In this document: positions 26,887 to 46,529 of the stretch, one piece after another
How positions within the stretch are numbered: position 1 is the stretch's first letter
Layout: every line of letters begins with the position of its first letter
From: Dehalococcoidia bacterium
GTDB lineage: Bacteria; Chloroflexota; Dehalococcoidia; GIF9; UBA5629
DNA: 64,000 bases
NCBI GenBank assembly: GCA_041653995.1
Contig: JBAZEK010000001.1
Location: forward strand, 1,030,613 to 1,094,612
Direction: 5' to 3'
Position numbers and translations under genes: made by a program
The notes under the pieces: model-generated
The model's input: the letters and a program-made list of their open reading frames with translations, nothing else
The model's database searches: none
Told to the model about the DNA's origin: nothing

Positions 26887-29545
<2,659 letters not shown>

Positions 29546-31038: not shown

Positions 31039-31275
31039 TTACATGATGTAGGGCGTGCGGCAGCATTTAAGTGCAACACGATGAGAACATATGGTGGGCG
31101 ATACTGGATTTGAACCAGTGACCCCCTGTGTGTAAGACAGGTAAAAACCTTTAATTGACTGGAGCTTATTGATAATCTCTAGGGAAGCCTTACGTTGTCC
31201 TGAAAGAATCATGCTCAAATAGCTTTTACTGATACCTAATTCTTTGGCTAATTGACTCTGTGTTAACTTTTTCAT
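31039..31275 (-). CDS. XRE-family HTH regulator (island-borne; C-terminus reads through attL into host flank)
   Basis: LTQSQLAKELGISKSYLSMILSGQRKAS HTH_3 motif. The last ~35 codons are encoded by the att repeat and flank. Confidence 0.55.
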   Translation of the reverse strand: MKKLTQSQLAKELGISKSYLSMILSGQRKASLEIINKLQSIKGFYLSYTQGVTGSNPVSPTICSHRVALKCCRTPYIM

Positions 31276-31530
31276 TTATTTCACCCGCCTTTTTATATCC
31301 TTTAAGCCTGCGTTTCCAATTATCGGTAAATATTGGTACGACTTCTTCTGTCTTCCTTTTGCACTAAAGTTCCCCTGTGGTTTTCTCACAAAATGACAGT
31401 CTACCTCATCAATAAGCCATCTCCGTCCAATGTAGAGTGCATTAATCCGTCCCTCTGACAAAAGCTTACGAACCCGTCTCTCAGATATACCAAGCCTTTC
31501 TGCTGCCTGTGGAACCGTAAGTAGTTTCAT
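31276..31530 (-). CDS. excisionase-like HTH DNA-binding protein
   Basis: LLTVPQAAERLGISERRVRKLLSEGRINALYIGRRWLI is an Xis/MerR-type HTH_17-like motif. Confidence 0.6.
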   Translation of the reverse strand: MKLLTVPQAAERLGISERRVRKLLSEGRINALYIGRRWLIDEVDCHFVRKPQGNFSAKGRQKKSYQYLPIIGNAGLKDIKRRVK

Positions 31531-31823
31531 TCAATTACCTTCTATCATTTTAATATTATACCGTTATCGGAATAATGTCAAGTATAATTACAAGCTAAAA
31601 TATCTTTTCTTTTTGCCGCATTTTTCCATAATACTCCGCAGAATTTTTTCAAATCGTATTTAAATTAAGTTTTAAAAGTTCAAGAATGAGGGTTTATAAT
31701 ATGCATATAAACTGGAAGCATATGGAAGGAAGCACGATAGAAAGTTAGAACGTAAGCAAGCGAGTAAGCAAGAAGGAAAGCAGGCGAGCAGGGAAGCTAT
31801 GTTGCTTTCCTTTTTTTAATTTT

Positions 31824-32057
31824 TTGATTCGGAGGTACGAAATGACTGAAAACAAGGTCAAGGAAATTAGATTGAGCAAATGCATGAATCAGAGAGAACT
31901 GGCAGAGAGAGCTCATATCTGTCAAACAGCTATTTCAGACATTGAAAGGGGGGTAAGACTACCATGGAAAGCAGCGTCTGAAAAGCTTGCTATTGCATTG
32001 GGTGTCACAATCGAGGAATTATTCCCAAACAATCTTAGGGGAGGTAAAAATTGCTAA
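31824..32057 (+). CDS. XRE-family HTH regulator (divergent from Xis-like gene)
   Basis: MNQRELAERAHICQTAISDIERG motif. A 290-bp AT-rich divergent intergenic region resembles a lysogeny-type switch. Confidence 0.75.
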   Translation: MIRRYEMTENKVKEIRLSKCMNQRELAERAHICQTAISDIERGVRLPWKAASEKLAIALGVTIEELFPNNLRGGKNC

Positions 32058-32528: not shown

Positions 32529-33026
32529 GTGAGTTGTAATAGATGGTCATACCTATTCGATGGTCTTAAGGAGGAAAATATGATTCAGGGCATAGAAAAT
32601 TATATAAATTTAACAGATACCAAGAATGAATGGGCAAAATTTCTAAATGGCTTTGAATGGCATTGGTTCTTTACTCTCACATTTGATAAAAAGGTAAGTG
32701 ATGACTTGGCATACAAGCAATTCTTTAGGTGGAAGAATTGGATAAAGAGTTCAGTAGGACACAGAATTTTCTATCTAATTATTCCTGAGCGTCCCAAGTA
32801 TAAGGGAGATAATACTCATATTCATGGATTTCTTAATGGTGTTGAAAATGAGAAACCCTACATATGGAGAAGGAAATGGGAGGCAATGGCAGGCTTTTCT
32901 CGGATTCAACCCTATGATAGTTCAAGGGGTGCAAGCTATTATCTAGCGGATAAAATTGTATTTAAAGAAGAGGATATTTATCATAGCAAAGACCTAAATA
33001 TGATAAAGATAAATACACTCAATTAA
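32529..33026 (+). CDS. putative HUH-superfamily rolling-circle replication initiator (Rep)
   Basis: Three motifs in canonical order: motif I FFTLTF, motif II HIHGFL (HUH) and motif III SYYLADK (YxxxK). Confidence 0.45.
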   Translation: MSCNRWSYLFDGLKEENMIQGIENYINLTDTKNEWAKFLNGFEWHWFFTLTFDKKVSDDLAYKQFFRWKNWIKSSVGHRIFYLIIPERPKYKGDNTHIHGFLNGVENEKPYIWRRKWEAMAGFSRIQPYDSSRGASYYLADKIVFKEEDIYHSKDLNMIKINTLN

Positions 33027-33165
33027 ATCCATTATATATATCAATATGATTATTACTACAAACATCAATATTTATTTCTTTTACTTTTACTTTTCCTTAT
33101 GCCCCTTTTTTATTTTTGCCCCAAATATGAATTAAATATAAATATCTACAATTAATTGCATAAAA

Positions 33166-33858
33166 TTGGGGCATAGGGAAAAAATCACATATAAAATTCA
33201 AATAGAAAGTCAGGAGGAATCAGTAAGTAAAATGAGTACAATAATTTCAAAACCTACGACAATTCAAATTAGCATGCTTGGGACACATGCCTTTTGTGAA
33301 TATAGGATATATCTTGAGCTTGTTATGGGTTTTAAAGCACGAGGTACACCAGAAATGCTTGAAGGCACAAAAGCACACTCAAGGATAAATACGATGGCTT
33401 TCTTAACGAGAGATTCAAATATTAGCATTGAGGATGCGTTGCTCCAAGCAGAGTCAGACGGAAGAGAAATAACAAAAAGGAACGTACGGGTAACAGGTAA
33501 GATACTACGTGGGAATATCGATGAAATTCACATTGGGCCAAAAGAAATTACGATTATAGATGATAAAAAATGGGCAGAGCATTATCCATCATATAAAAAT
33601 CAAGTCTTTGGCTATTGCCTTGCGTTTAAAGAACAATACAACCCAAAGCAGCCGATATACGGTGCCATAAAGAATTATCAGTCTGGAAAGGAAGTCTGGA
33701 AAAAACAATTTTCAGTTTTGGAAGAGGAATATATAAACGGCATTGTTCAAAGAATACTGGGGATAATTCGTGAGGATATCACTCCAAAACCCATTGGTGT
33801 TAGAGAAGTATGCTGGCAATGTGGATTTAAAAATTACTGCAATGTAAGGACACGATAG
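33166..33858 (+). CDS. Cas4-like / PD-(D/E)XK RecB-family nuclease with 4-Cys cluster
   Basis: An N-terminal Cys (HAFCEY), a D...IDDKK nuclease core, a QVFGY (QxxxY) motif and a C-terminal CWQCGFKNYC three-Cys motif. No CRISPR array is nearby. Confidence 0.5.
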   Translation: MGHREKITYKIQIESQEESVSKMSTIISKPTTIQISMLGTHAFCEYRIYLELVMGFKARGTPEMLEGTKAHSRINTMAFLTRDSNISIEDALLQAESDGREITKRNVRVTGKILRGNIDEIHIGPKEITIIDDKKWAEHYPSYKNQVFGYCLAFKEQYNPKQPIYGAIKNYQSGKEVWKKQFSVLEEEYINGIVQRILGIIREDITPKPIGVREVCWQCGFKNYCNVRTR

Positions 33859-33895
33859 CAAAATGGTGGAAAAAGGAAAAAGAAGAAACTAACTA

Positions 33896-34159: not shown

Positions 34160-34503
34160 ATTTATTTCCTTTCTTCCCTTTTCCGCTAAATTTAAACTAA
34201 ATATAAATATCTACAAATTATTATATTAAATCCACAACCAAATTTGAATATGAATGCCACAGATAAATGGCGGAAAAGAAAAAGAGTCTTAGAGATATTA
34301 TTATTTTGTATTATTTTCTTTAATAGTCAGATAGCAAGTGTGGCTAAGGGCAATTTTACCTTTAAAAATATTGAATCTGGTTGTCATTTGTCTAGTGCTT
34401 TAAAAATAGAAAACCTTCACGTGTGAGAAATGCCAGTAGCACGTGTATTAGAAGCGGCATTTTAAATAAAATCTTAGCCCAAAGTCATAGCAAATATAGA
34501 TTG

Positions 34504-34532
34504 TTGCATGCGTCCTTTTAATACGATAGAAT
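34504..34532 (+). promoter_or_regulatory. sigma70-like promoter TTGCAT-17-TAGAAT (copy 1 of duplicated promoter-leader)
   Basis: The same architecture recurs at 40413-40441. It is followed by a GGGGAG RBS and an ATG at 34559. Confidence 0.5.
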
Positions 34533-34558
34533 ACGGTCAATGTAGTGAGGCTGGGGAG

Positions 34559-36502
34559 ATGAAATATTTACTTGCTTGTTTCATAGCACTATTCGTTATA
34601 TCAGCCTGTGCATCTCAAGTCCATGTTGGTGACCAAGCTCCAAACTTCACACTGACAGATATAAATGGTAAACGTATTAGTCTGCAAGATTTTCGTGGCA
34701 AGCAGGTTGTTCTTTATCTTTGGTTTTTATATTGTCCTGAATGTACAGAAGACCTTGCTGAGATTCAAGAGTTGAATAATAATAGTGACGAAAGAGTCAT
34801 TAAGTTCCTAACCATTAACCCAGAAAATTCATCAAAAGACGTTGCGGATTTTTTCACTAAAAATGGATATAGTTTCCCAGTTTTGTTTGATTTAGATGGA
34901 AGTATTTACAAGCAATATAATTTACGACCTCGGTCTGCACCCTACACAATAATTATTGCTCCTGATGGAAAGATTAACAATATTACAGTGGGGAATCTTC
35001 ATTATCAAGGTGGTTTAAAACGGTTAATTGGAGATAACGTAACATCCTTCAGTCCAAGTGCACAAACTCAAAAGACTCCAATAATTATCGTACCCAGTTT
35101 ACAATCTCATGGTGTCGATGAACTTGCTTATGTATCTAGCGAAACGAACACGAACTCTATATATGTCGTGAATGCAAACGGGGAATATATTGCTAACTCA
35201 TCTGGAAAAATGGATGCATTATACCATGTTAGTTGGTCGCCAAACGGAGATAAGATTATTTTTGAAGTGGTTAAAGATATCAATATAGACCAGAGAAATA
35301 TGACCCTTATTTCTTCGTCTGATATTTATTCTCTTGATATTAAAGACCATGAAGAGCGTAGACTTACTTCAAATTATCCGTATAGCAATTGTTCTCCCAC
35401 ATGGATTGAAGACGATAAAATCGTATTTTATTCAACAAGGGGAAGTTCGTATGGCAGTTTTTTACAAAATATATACATCATGAACGCAGACGGAAGTAAT
35501 CAGATAAATTTAACTAATTGTGCAGAGAATGTACCTATGGTATTAGAACCAATATTATCGCCTGACCACTTGTCTGCAGCATATATTACGGGTAAGTTAT
35601 TCGATGAAGATATATATGTGATAAACCTAGTGAATGGAAATAAATTTGAAATAGGCCATAATCCAACATTTGCACCCTGGACTTGGTGGTCTCCAAACAG
35701 TAAACAGATAGCGTATATATCTGCCTCTCTAAACGGGGGGCCTGAATCATTTTATCTCTACGATGTCGAAAAACAGAAACCGATAAAATACTATGATAGC
35801 CCTCAATCTTATTCTATTATGGAAATAGCATGGTCGCCAGACAGTAACAAAGTCGCTATTTTTGAAAAACCGCAGAGCTTGTATGTTTTAGATTGTCTGA
35901 GTTCCAAGTTTACAAAACTTGATGGGATATGTGACTGGGTAGTAGAGATGAAATGGATACCTAATAACCAACAAATAGCCATTATTGGTGACAGGTTTAC
36001 AAACAGAAACTTGTATGTAATTGATATTGGTGAGCAGAGTAAGCATAAAATCAATCCAGAGGGAACGGCAGTCGAGTCGTATCGATGGTCAACTGATAAT
36101 ACAAGAATCATTTATTGCTTAGATGATGGATATCTTTACACAACTTTCCTACCCAACTTAAATACCATAAAACTAATGCAACTTAATAAAAATACGATAA
36201 AAGGGTTAGCTTTGTCACCAGACGGTTTATTAATCGCTGTTGCTCTGAGTGACGATACTCTAACTGTAATTTCATTAAACAATAACAAGGTGTGCTTGTT
36301 AACTAATGATTATTACAATATTGGAGCAATTTCTTGGTCGCAAAACAGTAACATACTTGCATTTGAATACGGAACTTTATGGGATAGTCCGTTTGTATGC
36401 AGTAACATTCAAATCATCAATTTCGAAAACGAGGAACAGTTCATTAAATTAGATAAACCAATCTCAGGACGCTCTCCAATTTGGGCGAGAAAGGAAAAAT
36501 AA
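34559..36502 (+). CDS. lipoprotein: TlpA-like thioredoxin-fold (CPEC) domain fused to TolB-like beta-propeller
   Basis: Signal/lipobox MKYLLACFIALFVISAC. The redoxin motif is GKQVVLYLWFLYCPEC. The C-terminal ~450 aa carry repeated SWSPNGDKI, AWSPDSNKVA and RWSTDNTRII PD40-like blades. Track ORF 34508 probably starts at 34559. Confidence 0.75.
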   Translation: MKYLLACFIALFVISACASQVHVGDQAPNFTLTDINGKRISLQDFRGKQVVLYLWFLYCPECTEDLAEIQELNNNSDERVIKFLTINPENSSKDVADFFTKNGYSFPVLFDLDGSIYKQYNLRPRSAPYTIIIAPDGKINNITVGNLHYQGGLKRLIGDNVTSFSPSAQTQKTPIIIVPSLQSHGVDELAYVSSETNTNSIYVVNANGEYIANSSGKMDALYHVSWSPNGDKIIFEVVKDINIDQRNMTLISSSDIYSLDIKDHEERRLTSNYPYSNCSPTWIEDDKIVFYSTRGSSYGSFLQNIYIMNADGSNQINLTNCAENVPMVLEPILSPDHLSAAYITGKLFDEDIYVINLVNGNKFEIGHNPTFAPWTWWSPNSKQIAYISASLNGGPESFYLYDVEKQKPIKYYDSPQSYSIMEIAWSPDSNKVAIFEKPQSLYVLDCLSSKFTKLDGICDWVVEMKWIPNNQQIAIIGDRFTNRNLYVIDIGEQSKHKINPEGTAVESYRWSTDNTRIIYCLDDGYLYTTFLPNLNTIKLMQLNKNTIKGLALSPDGLLIAVALSDDTLTVISLNNNKVCLLTNDYYNIGAISWSQNSNILAFEYGTLWDSPFVCSNIQIINFENEEQFIKLDKPISGRSPIWARKEK

Positions 36503-36527
36503 GAAATTTCAAAAATGGAGACTGAAT

Positions 36528-36824
36528 ATGACTGGCGAATTGGGAAATTTTGTTATCGTCATGGGATTACCCTGTTTAGGAGCGCTGTTAATAGCTTTTT
36601 GTTCATTACCAACCGATAAATGGACAATAAAACACACTTTTATGTTGGTGGGAACTTCACTAATTTTTATTAGCTTTATTTTGCAAGCATATCAGATTAT
36701 TGATAAATACCCTGATAAAAATGAATATATATTTGGATGGTGGATTGTCGGTTTAGCTACCGTTATCATGGCTATAATAGGGCAAATTATTAGAATCAGA
36801 TACGGTAAAAGTTGGTTCCAATAG
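36528..36824 (+). CDS. small membrane protein
   Basis: 98 aa with three hydrophobic helices. Confidence 0.4.
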   Translation: MTGELGNFVIVMGLPCLGALLIAFCSLPTDKWTIKHTFMLVGTSLIFISFILQAYQIIDKYPDKNEYIFGWWIVGLATVIMAIIGQIIRIRYGKSWFQ

Positions 36825-36920
36825 GATAATAAAATAGTGGGAAAGGAAAGAGAAGGAAATTTAATTAGCTATCTATATTTAAGATAAGAGTGACTTATAG
36901 AACTTCATTGAGGTTGGGAG

Positions 36921-37451
36921 ATGCAACAACAGTATCAATGCCCTAATTGTAGGTATCCAGTTGCTTATGGGAATAATTTCTGTGGACATTGTAGACAACA
37001 ACTAATCTGGCAACAATTAATGCCACCTTCACCACCAGTACACCATCAGCAAACACCACAAGGCATTATTGGGAAATCACACGAGCAAAACACTTCTGGA
37101 CAAGGTGGTCAATCAATAATACCCGATGAAAAGCGTATTAAACTTCCAAAACTCAATATTCGTTTCGACTTTGAGTTGTTTCAAGCAATTGAGGACAATG
37201 ACCGTAAACTGGCTGAACAGCTCAAAGCAAAATATGGGGATGATGTTTATAATTCCAATTTTTATAACCTGCTTAGTATCGAAGACGCTAACTCAGTAGA
37301 CTCACTTCATCTTAAACTAGTATCAGTTGAAAAAATGAATTTCAATGATATTTTATGCGAAAGTATCAAAATAGAGACTGAAAAAGTACGCAAAAGGATA
37401 GAGGAGCTTGAGAATATAAAAAATTTACGCAACGGGATTGAGGAAGTGTAA
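36921..37451 (+). CDS. zinc-ribbon protein (MQQxYxCPxC family N-terminus)
   Basis: MQQQYQCPNCRYPVAYGNNFCGHCRQQLIW matches the N-termini of chromosomal genes at 56282 and 58107. The rest is charged and coiled-coil-like. Confidence 0.55.
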   Translation: MQQQYQCPNCRYPVAYGNNFCGHCRQQLIWQQLMPPSPPVHHQQTPQGIIGKSHEQNTSGQGGQSIIPDEKRIKLPKLNIRFDFELFQAIEDNDRKLAEQLKAKYGDDVYNSNFYNLLSIEDANSVDSLHLKLVSVEKMNFNDILCESIKIETEKVRKRIEELENIKNLRNGIEEV

Positions 37452-37511
37452 GGAACTGACTAAACCCCTGAAACTGGCAGCTCGAGTAAGAAAAATGGCG
37501 GGAAAGAAAAT

Positions 37512-39368
37512 TTGATTTATATGTTATGGGATGATACGTATCGTAAAGATGCAGCGGAGTATGAAATCTATCTGCGTATGCATCATAAAGAAAAAAACGA
37601 TTACGAGAAGCTTTTATCTAATCTTGAACGTGAGTGGTCAGAAAAATCAGTTAAAGAAGAAAACTACATATCGCTTAAAAAGGAATACACAGCGAAACTA
37701 CAGGAAACAAAGAAGTACATTTCAAAGCTGAAATTCCAGATTACAGCACTCATTAAAAAATGTAATAAAGACATAGATAAAATCGATAGCCAAATTGAAC
37801 AAATTAAATTGCGGCACAAAGTTGGTGAATATTCAGAGGAGAAACTCAAAGAACTATTATCACCATCTGAAACAGAAAGAAGGCAATTTGAATCCTTAAT
37901 AATCGAACTGAAACGCATACATGGCTTGAAATATATACCTAAACCAACTACCGATGATGTTGTATCAGAAACAGAACCGAGTCAGCCTAGAAGGTCTCCT
38001 ATCCCAACGTCATCTACTTCTATTTCAACAGCTGAAGAGCAAGCCCCCGAAATATCAGCACCAATGAGTTTTGAAGAACCGCCTCCTATTTTGGTACCTG
38101 CTGTATTTAAAAAGTCTTCACCTGTAAGAGTAAAGAAGAGTCTGTGGATTATGGCTTCGATTACTATGTTTGTAATATTAATTCTCTGTTTTGTTATTTG
38201 GAATATAGAAGTGCATAAAAAGGTAATCCCTCAGATTGGAGACCAAGCTCCAAACTTCTCTCTCCCAGATATGAATGGTAAAACGGTTAACCTTCAGGAC
38301 TTTCACGGAAAGGGTGTTGTTCTTTACCTTTGGGACACATCATGTCCTTACTGCAAAAATGACCTTAGCTGGATAAATGAATTAAATGGCTGCACCTATG
38401 ACGAAGCAATAATATTTTTAACTATTAATATCTCAGATTCACGTGGAACAGCTATTAAATATTTTGAGGAAAATGGATATAGTATTCCCGTTTTAAATGA
38501 TATGCGTGGGACGGTTATTAAGCAGTATGTAAAGTACACCTTAGGCCATACGTATCCAGATACTATTCTTATTGGTTCAAATGGCCAGATTCGTAATGTA
38601 AAAGTCGGGCCCTTCCAAAGCAAGACTGAATTAAAAACATTTATAGAATCAGGTTTAACCCCCCGTTGGGATAATACTCCTCCACAAATTTATGATATTA
38701 ATCTTTCTAAGGCCTCTATTTTGAGTTGGAAAACGGATGAGGAAACACATAGTAATATACAAGGGTTTCGTAATAGTGTCGGAGGTGCTGGAGTCACTCT
38801 TGGTGAAAATTGGACAAGATATCATAGCGTAAATGAAACAGTTTGCACTAATGGCTACTATGACCAAATTCAAATCAACTCGTATGACCGCTGCGGTAAT
38901 TCTGCTTCAAAAGTTTTTACACTGCCCAACTGCATAAATTTAGGTTGTAGAGCTCCTGATTTCACAGCAACTTCAACTAATAATCAGGATATAACGCTGT
39001 CCGCAGTACCTAGCAAAATGACTCTACTTCACTTCTGGCTACTCGGATGTGGTGCATGTGAAAAGGAACTTCCATTAATCCAAAAACTATATTATGAGCG
39101 TCCTAGAGAAGAACTTGAGATATTGGCTGTGAATGTTAGAGGTGACATATACAGCATAAATGACTTCGTTACTGCAAATGGTTATAGATTAATTATTTTA
39201 CTAGATACAGAAGGCATAATAGATGCCGCCTATCATAATCCAAGGTTCCCCACAACCTTTTTATTGGATTGCAATAAGGTAATTATTAACAAGCATGACG
39301 GTGCCTTTCAAAATTATGAAGAAATCGTTGATTTTGTAGGTCAGTATCCAAAACTTCCTGGTAAATAG
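37512..39368 (+). CDS. membrane-anchored protein with N-terminal coiled coil and two TlpA-like thioredoxin-fold domains (CPYC and CGAC)
   Basis: TTG start. Single TM (LWIMASITMFVILILCFVIW). Domain 1 is IPQIGDQAPNFSL...VVLYLWDTSCPYCKND. Domain 2 is GCRAPDF...LLHFWLLGCGACEKE. Confidence 0.7.
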   Translation: MIYMLWDDTYRKDAAEYEIYLRMHHKEKNDYEKLLSNLEREWSEKSVKEENYISLKKEYTAKLQETKKYISKLKFQITALIKKCNKDIDKIDSQIEQIKLRHKVGEYSEEKLKELLSPSETERRQFESLIIELKRIHGLKYIPKPTTDDVVSETEPSQPRRSPIPTSSTSISTAEEQAPEISAPMSFEEPPPILVPAVFKKSSPVRVKKSLWIMASITMFVILILCFVIWNIEVHKKVIPQIGDQAPNFSLPDMNGKTVNLQDFHGKGVVLYLWDTSCPYCKNDLSWINELNGCTYDEAIIFLTINISDSRGTAIKYFEENGYSIPVLNDMRGTVIKQYVKYTLGHTYPDTILIGSNGQIRNVKVGPFQSKTELKTFIESGLTPRWDNTPPQIYDINLSKASILSWKTDEETHSNIQGFRNSVGGAGVTLGENWTRYHSVNETVCTNGYYDQIQINSYDRCGNSASKVFTLPNCINLGCRAPDFTATSTNNQDITLSAVPSKMTLLHFWLLGCGACEKELPLIQKLYYERPREELEILAVNVRGDIYSINDFVTANGYRLIILLDTEGIIDAAYHNPRFPTTFLLDCNKVIINKHDGAFQNYEEIVDFVGQYPKLPGK

Positions 39369-39441
39369 ATAATTTCTTGATATTAAGAAATCGAGGTGTA
39401 CTGGTCTGAACCCCTGAAACTGGACAGCTTGAGTAAGAAAA

Positions 39442-39951
39442 ATGGCGGAAAAAGAAATGCAACAGGAGGAGCATCCCCTAAATATGGGGAAGCTACTTGT
39501 GAATTTCCAATCACTTGAGATAGCTCTCCGTCTATTTCTTTATAATGATGAAATTGCCTCTAGAGTTTCATCTCCTCAGGCGGTAAACCTAAATGCTATG
39601 AATGCGGGGGATATAGTAGCTGAAAATGCGTTCACAAACTATGATAGTCTAAGTCAACTCATTGATAAATATAATAACCATCCCAACATCATATCGACAG
39701 GTCTAACCATTGATAAGACTTTAGTGGACATACGTGATGCAATAGCTCATGGAAGAGTCGCTGGAGTCACTCCTTTGCTTGTGCCTCCTTTAAAACTAAT
39801 GAAGTTTGATAAACCAAAGAACAAAAGTGTGAAAGTAACATTTAGCGTTTTATTGACAAGGGAATGGTTCATTCTAGAGATGGCTAAGGTTCAAGATGCA
39901 GTTTTTAAAGTCTTTCAAGCTATCCAAATAATACAGAGTGCTAAGACATAA
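39442..39951 (+). CDS. hypothetical protein with possible HEPN-like Rx4H motif
   Basis: 169 aa. RDAIAHGR fits Rx4-6H. The evidence is weak. Confidence 0.35.
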   Translation: MAEKEMQQEEHPLNMGKLLVNFQSLEIALRLFLYNDEIASRVSSPQAVNLNAMNAGDIVAENAFTNYDSLSQLIDKYNNHPNIISTGLTIDKTLVDIRDAIAHGRVAGVTPLLVPPLKLMKFDKPKNKSVKVTFSVLLTREWFILEMAKVQDAVFKVFQAIQIIQSAKT

Positions 39952-40412
39952 GTGGTGCCCTCTGAAATCGCTCTGAGGGGCTGAAATCAGGGTGTTGCAT
40001 ATTGAACATGACGGATTCCACCTGTCATTACTATTCCAGCTTAATTAGAGCCTTTAAAGTATTAAACAGTAAAGGTAATAACTCTACTTCCTTTCCCTTA
40101 AGCCCCTTTATTATTTCTTCGCCTAAGTTTCCGTTCAAGTGAATTATGTCGCTTTTAAGACCAACAAACGCTGGTACACCATAAACACGTTTACGTTCAA
40201 GCCAATTATGTCGTTTTGCATATATTATTTCCAGCTTAAATTAACTACAGAAAAATGGGGCAAAAAGAGAAAAAGGGGAATTATATATCAATTTATTGTC
40301 AATAATCTTTGAAATACTATTACTTCATCTGAGAGAGATGCCAGCAGCTAAGTGTAACGGCATTGAATTTTAAATAACTTCTCAGCCCAAAGTGGTAACG
40401 CATATAGGTCTA

Positions 40413-40441
40413 TTGCATAAGTATTGTTCATATAATAGAAT
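40413..40441 (+). promoter_or_regulatory. sigma70-like promoter TTGCAT-17-TAGAAT (copy 2 of duplicated promoter-leader)
   Basis: 83 bp spanning promoter -10, RBS and the first 17 codons is identical to 34526-34608. Confidence 0.5.
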
Positions 40442-40467
40442 ACGGTCAATGTAGTGAGGCTGGGGAG

Positions 40468-41880
40468 ATGAAATATTTACTTGCTTGTTTCATAGCACTA
40501 TTCGTTATATCAGCCTGCACACCAAATAACTCAATAAACAACGTTGAGACATTCCCAAAAATCGGAGATAAGATACCGAATATCTCATGGACTACTATCA
40601 ATGGCGAAAAGATTGATTTAAATCAGTTTAAAGGCAGTTGGGTGCTACTATGCTATTGGTGCTCTTGCCCTGTACATAGGAATGACATACTGACTATTCA
40701 TAATGTTTATGATTCATTATATGATAAGAATCTCGATGTCATTGTAATTAATGATACTTATGCTCAGATAGAATTAGAGGCATTTGGAAAACAAAACAAT
40801 GTACCGTTTTATTTAATTGAAGATAATCAAAAAACAATTGATAAACTTGTACCATTTGGCAACAGGCCAATATATCTCTTAATTGATGGGAGTGGGGATT
40901 TACATGCTATCGAAATAGGTACATTTCGCTCTGGCGAAAATAGCGTTAACAATGTAATCAATTTCCTTGATGATGTGATTAAGGTAAGAATCGATAATAT
41001 TACAGTCACTAATATTACTTCAAATAGGGCAACTGTGAGATGGAAAACAGATAAGGCAGTACCGTGTTGGTTGGAAATTCACCCCCAAGGTGACCCAATC
41101 GGAAAGTGCATCGGCAAGACAAATCCAAATACATTTCATGAATTGATATTAAACTGTAATCCCAACACAGCTTACACTTTTAACGTAGCTGCTAGTGGAT
41201 TAGATAATTCTTTAATTAACGATGCAAGCAATCGTAGTAGTGAATTTTCATTTCAAACATTACCAAATTGGGTTACTTCTTTATATGAGGTTGACTCTAC
41301 TAAACCAAAAATATCGAATGTTAAAGTTTCTATAATTACAGATACGAGTGCAGAGTTATATTGGGAAACTGATGTGGAAGCTCAAGTCACCGCTACAATC
41401 TGTAAATATATATCCAGTACTGATGCGCCCTTAAACTCCCAGAAAATTGATTTTATAGAAGACATATATTTTACAAAGAAACATAGCTTTACAATTAGCT
41501 CTCTTGAGCCAAGACGATTATATGACGTTGGTTTAAATGCCAAAGATAGAATGGGAAGGGTTGCCGATTACAGTGTCGAATTTTTAACACAACCTTCAAA
41601 TTATACTCACGGAGCGAAGATATCCAATATATCTTTATATGACATCACGGACAGGAGTGCTAAATTAAAATGGTCAACTGACAAGTCAGTATGGAGTTCA
41701 GCCTGCTATAAATATGAGTGCTCTTCTGGGGACATCAACACTGAGCATTCATATACACTATCCTATGGTCTGGAACCCGATACAGAATACTGGGTGCAAA
41801 TTCTAGCACATGGGGAATCGGTATCTGATGTATTCAACTTCAGAACATTAAAGACAACAGATAAGGTAGATATGAAATGA
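40468..41880 (+). CDS. lipoprotein: TlpA-like thioredoxin-fold domain with variant CYWCSC motif plus three FN3/PAP-N-like domains
   Basis: Identical signal peptide MKYLLACFIALFVISAC. IGDKIPNISW...WVLLCYWCSCPVHRND. Three ~95-aa domains of type ITVTNITSNRATVRWKTD / VKVSIITDTSAELYWETD / ISNISLYDITDRSAKLKWSTD. Confidence 0.7.
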   Translation: MKYLLACFIALFVISACTPNNSINNVETFPKIGDKIPNISWTTINGEKIDLNQFKGSWVLLCYWCSCPVHRNDILTIHNVYDSLYDKNLDVIVINDTYAQIELEAFGKQNNVPFYLIEDNQKTIDKLVPFGNRPIYLLIDGSGDLHAIEIGTFRSGENSVNNVINFLDDVIKVRIDNITVTNITSNRATVRWKTDKAVPCWLEIHPQGDPIGKCIGKTNPNTFHELILNCNPNTAYTFNVAASGLDNSLINDASNRSSEFSFQTLPNWVTSLYEVDSTKPKISNVKVSIITDTSAELYWETDVEAQVTATICKYISSTDAPLNSQKIDFIEDIYFTKKHSFTISSLEPRRLYDVGLNAKDRMGRVADYSVEFLTQPSNYTHGAKISNISLYDITDRSAKLKWSTDKSVWSSACYKYECSSGDINTEHSYTLSYGLEPDTEYWVQILAHGESVSDVFNFRTLKTTDKVDMK

Positions 41881-41907: not shown

Positions 41908-42084
41908 ATGGTAGCAAATAAGAAGAAGTATTATGCAGGGGAATCAGCTAAAGTCTCTGGCAAATACAACGAATGCAGATTGGGCACAGGCAAAACAGGA
42001 GTAACAGCAAATGTCAAGAAGGGGGATACACTCCCACCACATAAAATAGGAGCTCATTGGGAGTTATCAAGAAAATCTAAATAA
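41908..42084 (+). CDS. small ORF (58 aa) with strong RBS, not in supplied track
   Basis: AAAGGGAGGTAAAGAAG precedes the ATG at 41908. It encodes MVANKKKYYAGESAKVSGKYNECRLGTGKTGVTANVKKGDTLPPHKIGAHWELSRKSK. Confidence 0.3.
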   Translation: MVANKKKYYAGESAKVSGKYNECRLGTGKTGVTANVKKGDTLPPHKIGAHWELSRKSK

Positions 42085-42316
42085 TATAGACATATTTAAG
42101 AAAGTGGTGACTTATAAAACTTCATGCTGTCCTGAAAGCTGAATGACCGAGTATATCTTTGCACCATAATAAAGTTCAGCCAAGGCACCGTTAAAATGTA
42201 CTACAGAATTGTTCTAAAGGGCCAAAATGGGGTATATAATATAGGGCATGACAGATTCTTCCTGCCTGAGCTTTTCAAGCTTAATTATTGAACAAATAAC
42301 TATGAAATCCTGATTG

Positions 42317-43081
42317 CTAACGAGGTAACTGATTTGAGCCGTTCACATCTTTGTAGACTTGAAGAGCATCCTCAAAGGATAAAGATTTTGAATACCTTTC
42401 AACCATAGAAATGCTTTCCCAACCGCCTAGATTTTGCACAATACGAGTGGATAACCCAGACTTAATATTGTGAATACAAAACCCTCTTCTATAGCTATGG
42501 GCGTTGGACTTAATGCCAGTTTCTTTAGACAATCGTTTAAGCATAGTTTTAATGCCAGCTCTTGATATTTCAAAACTATCATGCTCATCAAACCACTTTC
42601 CGATAACACCATTACCAGCTAAAGCCTTACGATACTTGTTACCCTTGCCCAGAATGGTTACTGTACCTTCACCCCAGTCAAAGTCTTTAGCGTGCACATT
42701 AGCACATTCACTCAGCCTTACTCCTGAGTACCATAAGAAACTAATTAATGCTCTATCACGTTCACAATGACAATGATTTATCAGAACTTCTAATTGTTCT
42801 TTTGATACCGCAGGCAATAGCTTCTTTTGAATTTTTGGGCTAGGAACTTTGTCAATAACCTTGTCGTGAATATAGCTATTGCTGTATAGCCATGAAATGA
42901 GAGTTTTGAGAGCTTGATAGAATCTTGCTTTGCCATTATGACAGGTAAGTGATTTTAGATAAGCATTAACTCCATCTGGACTTAGGGGATAACCAATAAA
43001 ATGAGTTAAAGTATATTCGTAAAATTCAATAGTTCGCTTACTACAACCATCGGGGCGAGAAGAAATAAACTTCTCCAACAA
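42317..43081 (-). CDS. int: tyrosine recombinase / integrase (short XerC/D-like)
   Basis: 254 aa with catalytic R (WYSGVRLSE), K (LGKGNKYRK), HSYRRG (HxxR), R and the terminal VERY tyrosine. Its start is 63 nt from tRNA-Val. Confidence 0.85.
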   Translation of the reverse strand: MLEKFISSRPDGCSKRTIEFYEYTLTHFIGYPLSPDGVNAYLKSLTCHNGKARFYQALKTLISWLYSNSYIHDKVIDKVPSPKIQKKLLPAVSKEQLEVLINHCHCERDRALISFLWYSGVRLSECANVHAKDFDWGEGTVTILGKGNKYRKALAGNGVIGKWFDEHDSFEISRAGIKTMLKRLSKETGIKSNAHSYRRGFCIHNIKSGLSTRIVQNLGGWESISMVERYSKSLSFEDALQVYKDVNGSNQLPR

Positions 43082-43143: not shown

Positions 43144-43219
43144 TGGTGGGCGATACTGGATTTGAACCAGTGACCCCCTGTGTGTAAGACAGGTGCTCTA
43201 ACCGCTGAGCTAATCGCCC
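43144..43219 (-). tRNA. tRNA-Val (anticodon TAC); integration target
   Basis: 76-nt cloverleaf. Anticodon loop CTTACAC. CCA is encoded. It is highly similar to canonical tRNA-Val. Confidence 0.9.
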
Positions 43220-44586: not shown

Positions 44587-45612
44587 ATGCAGCAATGGAT
44601 AAGATGCACCAGATGCGGCGCCAATAATGCTCCCGGACAGAAATTCTGTAACGCATGCGGTACACCCCTGCCGACCGTCTGCCCCAATTGCGGAACCCCG
44701 GCAGGTCCCGGCAGCACTTTCTGCGCCAGGTGCGGCATGACATTCAGCGGTATGCCCCAGCAGACCGGATATTACCCTCCGCAGCAGCCGGGATATCCTC
44801 AGCAACCTGGCTATCCGCAGCAACCGGCATATCCGCAACAGCCGGGCTATCCTCAGCAACCGGGCTATCCTCAGCAACCGGGCTATCCGCAACAGCCGGG
44901 ATACCCGCAACAGCCTGGATATCCGCAGCAGCCCCCCGGCTACCCGCCTCAACAGACCGGCTATTATCCTCCGCAGCAGCCGGGTTATCCTCCACAGCCG
45001 GGATATCCGCAGCAACCGCCCGGTTATCCGCCGCAGCCGGGATATCCGCAACAGCCCGGCTATCCCCAGCAACCGGGATATCCGCCGGGCTATCCTCCGC
45101 AGCAGCCGCCACGCGGAGCGTATCCGCCGGGCGCAAGGCCACCCCAGCAAGGCGGCGGCAAAGGCATGCTCATATTGCTGCTGGTTGTTCTGATTGCCGG
45201 CCTGGCAGGCTTCGGTTACTGGGCTTACAGCCAGGGCTACCTCAAGGGCATACTTAACTTCGGCAGCGATAACACCACCACCTCCACAGGGAAACAGAAG
45301 GACACTGTGCCGCCCACCATCAGCGGCGTAGAAGTTAGCGCCAAGGCCATAAACGAAGTCGGCATTATCTGGAAGACGGACAAGCCATCCAGTTCTCAGG
45401 TGGAATGGGGTCCCAAGGGATCGTTCGGCAACAAGACGACACTACAGGATGACCCCGTGAGCGGTACCAGCATCGGTGTCACCGATCACGGGGTTATCGT
45501 CAAGGGATTAACGGCAAATACTGAATACCAGTACCGTGTGTTATCACATACCGACGGCAACGTTGACGCCGTATCCGCCACCAATACTTTCACGACACCT
45601 TCGGCAGATTAA
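44587..45612 (+). CDS. double zinc-ribbon / PQQPGY-repeat / TM / FN3-like surface protein
   Basis: N-terminus [23 protein letters not shown]. About 25 PQQPGY hexapeptide repeats are encoded by an 18-bp DNA tandem. Then a TM helix and a C-terminal Ig/FN3-like domain. Confidence 0.6.
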
Positions 45613-45644: not shown

Positions 45645-46529
45645 ATGTATCAATCAACAGTACCCTGCCCTAAATGCGGCGCGCAGAACCTGCGGGGACA
45701 GTGGGTATGCGCGTACTGCGGAAATACGCTTGTCGTTTATTGTCCATCCTGCCATACCGGCAACGCCATCGACAGCCAGTATTGCCACGCCTGCCATGCA
45801 GTTCTCGCGTATACCGGCGTTCCGCCGGCTCAACCACAGTATCAACCCCAACCCCAGCAGCCTCAACCATATCCGCAGTACCCGCAATATCCTCCCGGGC
45901 AAACTGACCAGGGCCAGTACCCTCCGCAGTATCCACCCTACCCTCCACCCGGTTATCCACCACAGCAACCACCCTACCCGGACTACCAGGCCGGATACGG
46001 CCAGCCCGGCGATTATAAACCATACTCGGTTCACGGCGGCGAAGCCTACGCCGGAGGCGGGCTGGACGGCCTGATCGACAGGCTCAAAGAGTTCGTGCGC
46101 AATACCAATCCCATTCTCCTCTCTTCGCTGGTGGTGCTGGTAGTCGGTCTGACCATCTTCCTCATCCTGGCCTTCCAGTTCGGCTGGATCAAGACGGGTT
46201 CGGCGCCCAAAGTAGAAACAGTTAAAGATACCACAGCTCCTGTGATAACTTATTTAACTTATGAGCCCGGTGAAAATAGAAGCATTATAATAATTTGGGC
46301 AACCAATGAGCCAGCAAGTACGCGGGTCGAGTGGGGTATCGCACCTGTTTTCAACCAATTCACACTTATAGAAAACGATCCCCAAGTTGGCCAAGGTACA
46401 CTTTCACATAGGGTAACATTGACTAACCTGCTACCAAACACCAGCTATATTTACCGCGCAATATCATATGACAAAGCAGGGAACAAATGCATGAGTCCTA
46501 CTATGCCATTCCAAACTACGAACTACTAG
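45645..46529 (+). CDS. zinc-ribbon / P,Q,Y-rich / TM / FN3-like surface protein (paralog)
   Basis: CPKCGAQN..CAYCG..CPSCH..CHACH, a PQY-rich tract, a TM helix and a C-terminal FN3-like domain. Confidence 0.6.
   Translation: MYQSTVPCPKCGAQNLRGQWVCAYCGNTLVVYCPSCHTGNAIDSQYCHACHAVLAYTGVPPAQPQYQPQPQQPQPYPQYPQYPPGQTDQGQYPPQYPPYPPPGYPPQQPPYPDYQAGYGQPGDYKPYSVHGGEAYAGGGLDGLIDRLKEFVRNTNPILLSSLVVLVVGLTIFLILAFQFGWIKTGSAPKVETVKDTTAPVITYLTYEPGENRSIIIIWATNEPASTRVEWGIAPVFNQFTLIENDPQVGQGTLSHRVTLTNLLPNTSYIYRAISYDKAGNKCMSPTMPFQTTNY

Follow-up and report, generated by a model that had tools for sequence, protein, structure and literature searches.

The surface-exposed thioredoxin fold of the ResA/TlpA type is already well known. 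ResA, StoA, CcmG and TlpA share a common fold with an N-terminal GxxAPNF strand, a cis-proline loop, a CxxC motif capping helix alpha1, and tethering to the membrane. In Streptococcus pneumoniae, Etrx1 and Etrx2 are surface thioredoxin lipoproteins (PMC3914529); they are single-domain proteins encoded with CcdA and MsrAB2. The fusion of a membrane-tethered TlpA-like domain to a beta-propeller or to Ig-like domains is also known, from SOQ1 and NHLRC2 (10.1101/2021.03.16.435614; PMC6107167) and from DipZ. SOQ1 combines a TM helix with a TlpA-like Trx domain, followed by a propeller and an Ig-like C-terminal domain (CTD); it has Msr activity, and feeding by CcdA has been proposed (10.1101/2021.03.16.435614; 10.1101/2024.11.01.621559). 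Redox cargo on a mobile element likewise has a precedent, the Legionella element ICE-betaox, which carries msrAB and ahp (PMC4010831).

The window analyzed here, a stretch of 64,000 nucleotides from an uncultured Dehalococcoidia bacterium, contains a small tRNA-Val-integrating element whose cargo includes three proteins of this kind, denoted A, B and C. The element spans 12.1 kb at 35% GC in a host of 54% GC and is bounded by two identical 51-nt direct repeats (31092-31142 and 43144-43194) that correspond to the 3' end of tRNA-Val(tac). Together with a tyrosine integrase, these features bear out the earlier note's view of this stretch as a mobile island. The backbone genes encode the integrase, Xis, a HUH Rep-like protein and a Cas4-like nuclease, and the flanks and backbone are arranged as follows.

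31039-31275, minus strand: XRE-type HTH protein, 3' end running into attL (Pfam HTH_3, E=1.2e-10)
31092-31142, no strand: attL, 51-nt direct repeat, copy of the tRNA-Val 3' end, identical to 43144-43194
31276-31530, minus strand: excisionase-like HTH_17 protein (Pfam HTH_17, E=2.8e-10; PHROG excisionase families)
31824-32057, plus strand: second XRE-type HTH regulator (Pfam HTH_3, E=5.9e-10)
32529-33026, plus strand: small HUH Rep-like protein (PF23343 REP_ORF2-G2P, 27.6 bits against a cut-off of 27.8; H-I-H present)
33166-33858, plus strand: Cas4-like PD-(D/E)XK nuclease (TIGR00372 cas4, E=1e-13, below its cut-off; PADLOC Cas4 models)
42317-43081, minus strand: tyrosine integrase, 254 aa, XerA/XerC-like (Pfam Phage_integrase, E=3.3e-21; NCBIfam XerA, E=1.5e-31, below cut-off)
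43144-43219, minus strand: tRNA-Val(tac), target of integration; attR consists of the 51 nt at its 3' end

A single homologue of the Rep-like protein was found (P0134, 68% identity), and the excisionase-like gene is 89% identical at the nucleotide level to its copy in contig L093. Like ICE-betaox, the island is a direct-repeat-flanked integrative element with extra redox or antioxidant gene copies as cargo, and the earlier suggestion that such cargo is of an undescribed type is thus anticipated by that system. The two nevertheless differ: ICE-betaox is a conjugative element of 65 kb with msrAB and ahp, whereas the island lacks conjugation genes and carries TlpA-like surface proteins. Since the element also encodes many small membrane proteins, and its Rep-like protein is borderline to the plectrovirus/inovirus G2P family, it could be read as the provirus of an unrecognized membrane-containing or filamentous virus whose lipoproteins and membrane proteins act in the virion or in host entry. 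This reading is highly improbable. The element contains no capsid, terminase or morphogenesis ATPase gene, among viral contigs A, Rep and Cas4 have no relatives, the phage database gave no match, PHROGs returned only a generic unknown family, and redoxin genes occur in other contigs that lack this backbone.

The cargo region comprises the following features.

34504-34532, plus strand: conserved sigma70-like promoter element of A (TTGCAT-17 nt-TAGAAT), a pattern conserved upstream of family genes at other loci
34559-36502, plus strand: protein A, a lipoprotein that joins a TlpA/ResA-like domain (CPEC) to a large beta-propeller body
36528-36824, plus strand: 98-aa protein, three TM helices predicted from hydropathy
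36921-37451, plus strand: zinc-ribbon protein, 176 aa, predicted cytoplasmic (weak DZR/zinc-ribbon Pfam matches)
37512-39368, plus strand: protein B, with coiled coil, TM helix, TlpA-like domain (CPYC), FN3-like spacer and TlpA-like domain (CGAC); start codon uncertain
39442-39951, plus strand: 169-aa cytoplasmic protein with an RDAIAH (Rx4H) motif and no assigned function (faint HEPN_RiboL-PSP match, E=0.078)
40413-40441, plus strand: conserved sigma70-like promoter element of C
40468-41880, plus strand: protein C, a lipoprotein whose TlpA-like domain is a variant (C62-Y-W-C65-S-C67-P-V-H70) and which also has three FN3 domains
41908-42084, plus strand: 58-aa basic protein (p58) accompanying C; the pair is kept in L097 at 74% nucleotide identity

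The earlier note had read the three long ORFs starting at 34559, 37512 and 40468 as thioredoxin-fold proteins, and profile searches agree. The Pfam AhpC-TSA/Redoxin cut-off is 26 bits, and all three exceed it by a wide margin: A with 87.4 bits, B with 130.6 bits over two stretches and C with 47.9 bits. The three proteins together contain four such domains, whose nearest family in both Pfam and NCBIfam is ResA/TlpA; yet none of A, B and C reaches a curated NCBIfam cut-off. The best solved relatives in the PDB are ResA, StoA and Etrx, the Etrx structures 2yp6, 4hqz and 4hqs being among the top matches. The four domains share 20-47% pairwise identity, in line with the proposal of a diversified, predicted extracytoplasmic TlpA/ResA-like set as cargo of a tRNA-integrated element. 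The CPEC motif of A and the CPYC and CGAC motifs of B fall on exactly the same alignment columns as the active-site CxxC of ResA, and all three domains have a proline at the position of the ResA LPTT loop. In the alignment of A/B-type relatives, both Cys-x-x-Cys and this proline are invariant. Because the top Pfam model is AhpC-TSA and weak NCBIfam matches to Bcp/PrxQ occur, direct peroxide detoxification by peroxiredoxins was considered, and its probability is very small: on direct reading the PxxxT/SxxC peroxidatic motif is absent, the helix-cap CxxC is the signature of TlpA/ResA, the NCBIfam scores for ResA/StoA/TlpA lie far above those of the Prx models, and the top PDB matches are ResA, StoA and Etrx rather than Prx.

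The leader of the three proteins proved to be shared only in part. A and C open with the same lipoprotein signal peptide of 17 aa, MKYLLACFIALFVISAC, which has a lipobox, and their DNA is identical over 85 nt ending at the lipobox Cys codon; B lacks a signal peptide. The IGD[QK]APNF motif, previously taken as the common leader, is the usual first-strand motif of the ResA/TlpA family (GSDAPNF in ResA), and it reads VGDQAPNF in A and IGDKIPNI in C. In the window the TTGCAT-17 nt-TAGAAT pattern is confined to two places, one upstream of A and one upstream of C, where 0 matches would be expected by chance. A and C are thus predicted from their sequence to be driven by one conserved cassette of promoter and signal peptide.

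The modules attached to the redox domains are as earlier described for A (a beta-propeller) and C (three FN3 domains), but the coiled coil and TM helix of B are N-terminal. A has a PD40/WD40-like propeller, probably a tandem one; AF2 confidence in the redox domain of A is low (pLDDT about 57-66). B has one predicted TM helix at approximately residues 207-239, following a predicted cytoplasmic coiled coil, and by predicted topology it is a bitopic membrane protein with a cytoplasmic N-terminus. The spacer between its redox domains had no match in Pfam and looks FN3-like only through similarity to relatives; the same architecture recurs in P0137, P0139 and P0142. The interleaved zinc-ribbon and small membrane protein genes are present as noted before. 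The zinc-ribbon ORF and B lie in the same frame with two stop codons between them. Family searches (Pfam, PHROG, NCBIfam, PADLOC) found no match for the 98-aa protein, and neither NCBIfam nor PADLOC had one for the 169-aa protein.

Protein C departs from this pattern, and it is the only one of the three in which the cysteine motif is displaced from the canonical site. The CYWCSC sequence, once regarded as a variant redox motif, is not the equivalent of CxxC: the canonical nucleophile position is C67 and the resolving position is H70 (C-P-V-H), while C62 and C65 are extra upstream cysteines. The AF2 model of C matches ResA in Foldseek (4nmu_A, TM 0.81) and contains a strand at 58-64, a loop at 65-67 and a helix at 68-83, with pLDDT about 90 there, so that C67 caps the helix. 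A very rare subfamily, with 9 representatives among 1.84 billion, conserves the motif C-Y-W-C-x-C-x-x-H; the domain alignment of C-type relatives shows no variation at C62, C65 and C67 and almost none at H70. This conserved Cys3-His motif is undescribed. C keeps the nucleophilic cysteine, has a histidine for the resolving one and carries two further conserved cysteines. It probably acts as a monothiol variant or binds metal, and is less likely to be a standard dithiol oxidoreductase. A rival reading makes the C subfamily a metal-binding thioredoxin fold with no oxidoreductase function, either a Sco/PCuAC-type metallochaperone-like protein or an Fe-S/Zn site with C62, C65, C67 and H70 as ligands. 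It would fit the retention of C-x2-C-x-C-x2-H across relatives of 35-63% identity, the histidine at the resolving position, the location of C67 and H70 on the first helical turn with C62 in the preceding strand (aligned with Asp26 of Trx), and the C-G-C-P-S-H motif in the related second domain of P0131. However, this reading, drawn from sequence and secondary structure, is quite unlikely: the distant P0132, P0136 and P0138 keep C62 but have lost C65, C67 or H70, and copper or cytochrome oxidase genes are absent nearby.

Compared with the described systems, A and both domains of B share the helix-cap CxxC of ResA, StoA, CcmG and TlpA, but the island proteins add a propeller, FN3 domains and a cytoplasmic coiled coil, the resolving cysteine is missing from C, and the trio has no genes for cytochrome c maturation, Sco or CcdA nearby. 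With Etrx1 and Etrx2 they share lipoprotein anchoring of TlpA-like domains, a cell surface without an outer membrane and several paralogues per genome; unlike these, they are multi-domain, encoded on a mobile island and unaccompanied by Msr or CcdA. The order of tethered TlpA-like domain, beta-propeller and Ig-like domain is that of SOQ1/NHLRC2, and an atypical active-site motif with an extra cysteine (CCINC in SOQ1/NHLRC2) is a further point in common. Profile A3 matches the SOQ1 Trx domain weakly (7djj, E=3.6e-4), and also DipZ. The SOQ1/NHLRC2 propeller is, however, a six-bladed NHL propeller, and the island proteins have neither the CCINC motif nor an n-DsbD-like CTD. They are outside that family, and the resemblance is architectural only. 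The C-terminal region of Mycobacterium tuberculosis DipZ (2hyx, 5cyy) is a distant profile match (E about 1e-5 to 1e-3), its TlpA-like region being only part of a chain of ~350 residues. Unlike the island proteins, DipZ has a beta-sandwich module as the remainder of this chain and joins the region to a CcdA-like membrane domain of its own.

Relatives in other contigs show these genes to be passed among Chloroflexota in low-GC cassettes that bring a promoter of their own. All three protein types occur together on contig L008, which answers the earlier call to look for the trio elsewhere. Low-GC patches with family genes adjoin tRNA-Glu in L095/L096 and L097 and tRNA-Asn in L006 and L014, and the last two carry different cargo at the same chromosomal spot (a C-type and an A-type gene, respectively). 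In L015, a 40%-identical relative lies within a trx-ccdA-TlpA operon, which ties the family to CcdA. A link between redox cargo and this Rep/Xis backbone is not supported: its only relative, in L093, has different cargo, and the redoxin loci surveyed share none of the island's accessory genes. Module shuffling is extensive: while the N-terminal unit stays constant, the C-terminal part may be a propeller, an FN3 array, a beta-sandwich or a protease-like domain. Active sites are degenerate in several relatives, with SCHF in domain 2 and no cysteine in domain 3 of P0002, and cysteines lost in P0132, P0136 and P0138. Consequently, the fold may sometimes serve a non-redox role. A neighbor of the P0002 gene encodes an NHL-repeat lipoprotein, another point of contact with SOQ1/NHLRC2.

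This shuffling, the degenerate paralogues and the replaceable low-GC patches would also suit variable surface proteins, in which the TlpA-like module, promoter and leader serve mainly as scaffold and anchor, redox activity is secondary or lost, and the swapped C-terminal modules are functional, for example in binding polymers or particles or in surface variation under phage pressure. This account is nevertheless rather unlikely, given the invariant CxxC and cis-proline of the A/B-type alignment and the two intact CxxC domains of B; the strong conservation of Cys3-His in the C-type alignment likewise argues that selection acts on the active site itself.

The slightly favored interpretation casts A, B and C as extracytoplasmic thiol-disulfide reductases that are tethered to the membrane, recruit substrates through their added modules and draw electrons from host CcdA and thioredoxin. 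Neither the island nor the ~40 window genes scanned include a gene for CcdA/DsbD, Msr or cytochrome c maturation, and the host-fed electron source is consequently putative. The direction of the reductase reaction, the electron donor, the substrates and the role in physiology are inferred, with Etrx1/2-MsrAB2, ResA/CcmG and SOQ1 as precedents. A and C would be held at the surface as lipoproteins and B through its TM helix. The domain of A and both domains of B, with canonical CxxC and cis-proline loop, would most likely be the reductases. Electrons would pass from cytoplasmic thioredoxin through a CcdA/DsbD-type transporter of the host to these domains, and from there to envelope substrates that the propeller and FN3 modules may recruit.

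Between roughly 31.1 and 43.2 kb the window has a GC content of about 35%, as against about 54% on both flanks, which marks a sharp compositional island. A 51-nt direct repeat, TGGTGGGCGATACTGGATTTGAACCAGTGACCCCCTGTGTGTAAGACAGGT, lies at 31092-31142 and 43144-43194; the copy on the right belongs to an intact tRNA-Val(tac), whose 3' end it forms, and this tRNA gene opens a Val-Arg-Leu-Val tRNA cluster. With its tyrosine recombinase, its direct repeats of a tRNA 3' end and its deviating base composition, the region is a tRNA-integrating element of 12.1 kb. It sits on a 1.28-Mb contig of a Dehalococcoidia MAG. Genes for the element's movement and cargo are listed below.

34559-36502: protein A, 647 aa
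37512-39368: protein B, 618 aa, two redoxin domains (B1 and B2)
40468-41880: protein C, 470 aa
Adjoining tRNA-Val: tyrosine integrase, 254 aa, with Pfam and NCBIfam matches
End opposite the integrase: two XRE-type HTH genes and an excisionase-like HTH_17 gene
End opposite the integrase: small HUH Rep-like protein, PF23343 at 27.6 bits (cut-off 27.8)
End opposite the integrase, within the island: Cas4-like PD-(D/E)XK nuclease, with profile matches

The search for an empty site returned only one other contig with an island-flanking gene, L094, which ends within the att repeat. A provirus with structural membrane proteins is an unlikely alternative identity, since relatives of A, Rep and Cas4 were absent from the viral contigs searched, megablast against phages gave no match, and PHROGs yielded just one generic family of unknown function. 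For the inovirus- or plectrovirus-like version, the Rep score is borderline, and the island has no morphogenesis ATPase. A defence-system reading was also rejected, as the PADLOC scan for such systems matched only the Cas4-like nuclease in the island. At the left end of the integrated element, an XRE gene (31039-31275, minus strand) reads through attL, and its last ~35 codons are tRNA-derived. The C-terminus of its product would therefore differ between the integrated and the excised element.

Profile searches place all three cargo proteins in the thioredoxin fold, as an earlier note on this DNA had proposed. The Pfam AhpC-TSA model scores 87.4 bits for A, 130.6 for B and 47.9 for C, with a cut-off of 26. 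The nearest NCBIfam model is ResA in every case, always below its curated cut-off (NF002854, 170 bits; A 89.5, B 161.7 with two domains summed, C 53), and the best solved-structure matches are ResA, StoA and the pneumococcal Etrx lipoproteins. In HMMER alignments, CPEC of A, CPYC of B1 and CGAC of B2 sit exactly on the ResA CxxC; in the model of A, a helix begins at residue 60, right after C59. The cis-proline loop opposite the active site (LPTT in ResA) corresponds to APYT in A, YPDT in B1, FPTT in B2 and RPIY in C, and alignments A3, A2 and A5 show its proline without exception. The redox domains of A, B1, B2 and C are 20-47% identical pairwise and represent old paralogues and not recent copies; the closest pair, A and B1, shares 47% amino acid identity and 70% nucleotide identity over 152 nt. 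A peroxiredoxin assignment (AhpC, Bcp or Tpx) was discarded: direct reading of A, B and C found no PxxxT/SxxC motif, and the NCBIfam peroxiredoxin models reached only 15-45 bits against cut-offs of 123-270.

Protein C departs from the canonical arrangement. In thioredoxin-fold enzymes the active-site cysteine always caps a helix. In single-sequence and profile alignments of C alike, C67 falls on the nucleophilic cysteine and H70 on the resolving one, so that the canonical positions read C-P-V-H. The expectation of a CxxC at the start of helix alpha1 thus holds for A, B1 and B2 and not for C, and CYWCSC, previously taken as a variant redox motif, consists of the true active-site cysteine with two extra ones (C62 and C65) ahead of it. 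The AlphaFold model (mean pLDDT 78, about 90 in the TlpA-like domain) has a strand at 58-64, a loop at 65-67 and a helix at 68-83, an order in which C67 caps the helix. Foldseek matches the redox domain to ResA (4nmu_A, TM 0.81) and the remainder to tandem FN3 arrays. The motif C-Y-W-C-x-C-x-x-H is kept whole in relatives only 35-63% identical to C, and in a domain-only alignment of such C-type relatives C62, C65 and C67 are invariant and H70 nearly so. When 1.84 billion cluster representatives were searched exhaustively with a profile, just 9 subfamily members reached E<=1e-30, which makes the subfamily very rare, and no motif of this type was found described in the searchable literature. In our own alignment, C62 coincides with the buried Asp26 of E. 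coli thioredoxin, beside the resolving position, which makes an active-site Cys3-His cluster plausible. That such a cluster would bind metal is doubtful as a reading of these residues, and it would apply to protein C only.

A and C begin with an identical 17-residue lipoprotein signal peptide, MKYLLACFIALFVISAC, in which a predicted ISAC lipobox follows the hydrophobic leader. B has no signal peptide and a single predicted TM helix with VRVKK just before it. All three proteins are predicted to be extracytoplasmic and membrane-tethered. The shared leader reported earlier is consequently real for A and C and absent from B, and the IGDxAPNF segment assigned to it corresponds to the usual first strand of ResA-family proteins. 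The C-terminal modules were correctly recognized in A, whose body is a large PD40/WD40-like beta-propeller region (about 44 strands in the model, with tandem propellers as best fold matches), and in C, which carries three FN3 domains; the first and third of these hold semi-conserved cysteine pairs, C200/C214 and C413/C418. In B, the coiled coil and TM helix precede the redox domains: from the N-terminus come a cytoplasmic coiled coil, a Pro/Ser-rich linker, the TM helix, TlpA-like domain 1, the spacer domain and TlpA-like domain 2. The more distant P0137, P0139 and P0142 share this architecture, and their spacer reads as FN3/PAP-N-like.

The possibility that the island's zinc-ribbon ORF and B are one split gene was examined and rejected: they are in frame, yet two stop codons separate them and B-like homologues start downstream of these, and the two are treated as separate genes. 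B is called from a TTG at 37512. An ATG at 37494, followed by GCG GGA AAG, has an in-phase G_GGA_AAG heptamer and needs a -1 shift to reach the frame of B; the region 37494-37512 could contain a 1-nt indel or assembly error at the true start of B, or a -1 slip site. Just outside the island, two host genes in tandem (44587-45612 and 45645-46529) have one domain plan in common: a double zinc ribbon, a long Pro/Gln/Gly/Tyr repeat of the PQQPGY type, a TM helix and a PAP-N/FN3 domain. Their topology logic is that of B plus the zinc-ribbon ORF. On the other side, 1.5 kb upstream of the island, lies a host gene for a 747-aa KatG-like catalase-peroxidase (27302-29545), which suggests that the Dehalococcoidia host meets oxygen or peroxide.

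The similarity of A and C extends into DNA that precedes the mature proteins. The two genes share 85 identical nucleotides ending exactly on the lipobox Cys codon, and weaker similarity continues about 100 nt farther upstream. The conserved upstream block has the form of a sigma70-type promoter (TTGYAT-17 nt-TAGAAT), a pattern with only two occurrences in the 64-kb window (34504-34532 and 40413-40441) against none expected by chance. The pattern also lies upstream of family genes in other loci (L006/L007/L010, L009, L095/L096 and L097), and the upstream alignment extends the block to L005 and L014. It also precedes an unrelated cargo gene in L093 (13259-13330), and no match was found among the viral contigs searched. 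The idea that a structured RNA leader precedes A and C was rejected, as Rfam matched tRNAs only.

The island contains further repeats. A purine-rich motif of the 20-nt class, AGAAAAATGGCGGAAAAAGAAA, has seven copies of roughly 20 nt each inside it:

33857-33876, plus strand: AGAAAAATGGCGGAAAAAGAAA motif
34261-34282, plus strand: AGAAAAATGGCGGAAAAAGAAA motif
37489-37510, plus strand: AGAAAAATGGCGGAAAAAGAAA motif
39436-39457, plus strand: AGAAAAATGGCGGAAAAAGAAA motif
40249-40268, plus strand: AGAAAAATGGCGGAAAAAGAAA motif
31605-31626, inverted: AGAAAAATGGCGGAAAAAGAAA motif
33102-33123, inverted: AGAAAAATGGCGGAAAAAGAAA motif

A longer, 52-nt version is found at 37460-37511 and 39406-39458. An ATG within the motif starts a 169-aa gene and several mini-ORFs, and the motif could be bound by a regulator or act as a conserved module for translation starts. 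The 169-aa cytoplasmic protein (39442-39951, between B and C) carries the motif RDAIAH (Rx4H), gives a faint match to HEPN_RiboL-PSP (E=0.078) and may be a HEPN-type toxin or defence gene; comparison showed it to be unrelated to the 182-aa protein encoded ahead of the L006 C-type gene. Two copies of a 34-nt non-coding repeat (36875-36908 and 42092-42125; 85% identity) lie 3' of the 98-aa and 58-aa genes, and two more occur in the related element L093 (16302-16363 and 16927-16993). The repeat could be a terminator or cassette boundary.

Relatives of the cargo recur on other contigs. A survey for the same trio succeeded in L008, a 53-kb contig of ~39% GC, where a C-type and an A-type TlpA lipoprotein accompany a B-type coiled-coil/TM protein 37% identical to B over ~500 residues. 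On L009, a short redoxin and a gene for a propeller accompany two C-type genes. On L005, an A-type lipoprotein (369 aa) precedes a propeller protein encoded on its own (376 aa), which makes A look like two adjacent genes fused into one. In higher-GC hosts the family is found in low-GC patches; P0002, for example, lies beside an NHL-repeat lipoprotein in a 7-kb, 37% GC patch of a 58% GC genome. C-type or A-type genes also stand directly 3' of tRNA-Asn (L006, L014) and tRNA-Glu (L095/L096, L097). Taken together, the patches and tRNA neighbours characterize the redoxin cargo as repeatedly tRNA-adjacent and compositionally foreign.

This cargo is not tied to the backbone of the present island. The only relative of its Rep and Xis genes is the element L093 (8867-17100), at tRNA-Ala on a Chloroflexota contig, with 89% (Xis) and 75% (Rep) nucleotide identity; it has a degenerate integrase, and its cargo comprises membrane proteins and a zinc-ribbon/TPR protein and no redoxin. 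The island's accessory genes are shared with no other redoxin locus, except for the 58-aa ORF after C, which is kept in L097. Scanning genome contigs for C-type genes gave one true locus, in a Chloroflexia MAG; two Cycloclasticus matches were set aside as ordinary CPGC TlpA proteins. Searching metagenomes with the A/B-type domain yielded for the most part generic TlpA proteins, with L013, L014 and L015 as the only close relatives.

Some of these loci have further features. L006 (8498-11700) and L014 (3554-5068) occupy the same chromosomal spot, coaE followed by tRNA-Asn, with different low-GC cargo (a C-type gene and an A-type TlpA+FN3 lipoprotein, respectively), and the spot looks like a replacement-type flexible island. 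P0002 (L001 9893-13168; 1055 aa) has FN3 domains and three redoxin domains, of which the first alone retains CxxC, one having SCHF and one no cysteine; the Cys/His pattern of its C-terminal domain is suggestive of a protease or transglutaminase, and the neighbouring NHL-repeat lipoprotein comes after it. An FHA-domain ABC transporter of ~800 aa is a recurrent neighbour of redoxin clusters on low-GC contigs (L005 429-2855; L008 11517-12736; also the contig carrying P0004), and the island has no counterpart.

Intact CxxC and cis-proline elements, surface tethering and the nearest characterised relatives indicate that the island proteins are most likely extracytoplasmic thiol-disulfide reductases. 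Rather unlikely is that they are variable surface proteins whose redox domain is mainly a scaffold; module shuffling among relatives and degenerate active sites in some paralogues would fit this, and the invariance of active-site residues in the alignments argues against it. For the reductase reading there are precedents. Pneumococcal Etrx1/2 are surface TlpA-like lipoproteins feeding MsrAB2 (PMC3914529). SOQ1 and NHLRC2 combine a membrane-tethered TlpA-like domain with a propeller, an Ig-like domain and an atypical CCINC motif, and SOQ1, proposed to be CcdA-fed, has Msr activity (10.1101/2021.03.16.435614; 10.1101/2024.11.01.621559; PMC6107167). With the A/B-type profile, the SOQ1 Trx domain and DipZ are weak hits. 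Like SOQ1 and NHLRC2, A joins a TlpA-like Trx domain to a following beta-propeller in one membrane-tethered chain; unlike them, it has CPEC instead of CCINC, a PD40/WD40-like propeller with tandem-propeller matches instead of a six-bladed NHL one, and no n-DsbD-like CTD.

With these precedents, the propeller and FN3 bodies of the presumed reductases can be read as modules that would recruit substrates or partners. Electrons, we infer, would be supplied through CcdA, and the island would add thiol-redox capacity to the envelope. A 40%-identical relative within a classical trx-ccdA-TlpA operon (L015) fits such a supply; genes for CcdA, DsbD, Msr or cytochrome maturation turned up neither in the island nor in the set of window genes scanned, which includes the catalase-peroxidase.

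In essence the earlier observation stands, with four of its details corrected, and its interpretation is partly right. A diversified set of thioredoxin-fold proteins, extracytoplasmic by prediction, is indeed carried by a mobile element, the tRNA-Val island. Redox cargo in general is not an undescribed type, having been reported on mobile elements before (PMC4010831). The kind of protein is likewise already known, and the architecture has clear precedents; since the proteins belong to a very large, well-understood family, the general biological surprise is moderate. What is new is the rare Cys3-His variant, the promoter-plus-leader cassette and the repeated low-GC, tRNA-adjacent family patches in Chloroflexota. 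The genes appear to move as ready-to-express cassettes, in which interchangeable substrate-binding bodies are joined to a unit of promoter, lipoprotein leader and TlpA module. A bolder proposal, to which we give little credence, is that the low-GC cassettes form a mobile, self-promoted toolkit of surface-tethered TlpA modules exchanged among Chloroflexota at tRNA sites, and that the C subfamily, with an undescribed Cys3-His redox or metal centre derived from the thioredoxin active site, would form together with its CxxC paralogues and FN3 cysteine pairs a portable extracytoplasmic electron relay like DsbD or SOQ1.

Dehalococcoidia and other Chloroflexota are poorly known, mostly uncultured and without a classical periplasm. 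A very rare thioredoxin-fold subfamily is set apart by the conserved motif C-Y-W-C-x-C-x-x-H and could house a new metal or monothiol centre. Should the inferred function be correct, the thiol-redox capacity of the envelope would be a flexible, horizontally exchanged part of the genome in Dehalococcoidia and other Chloroflexota.
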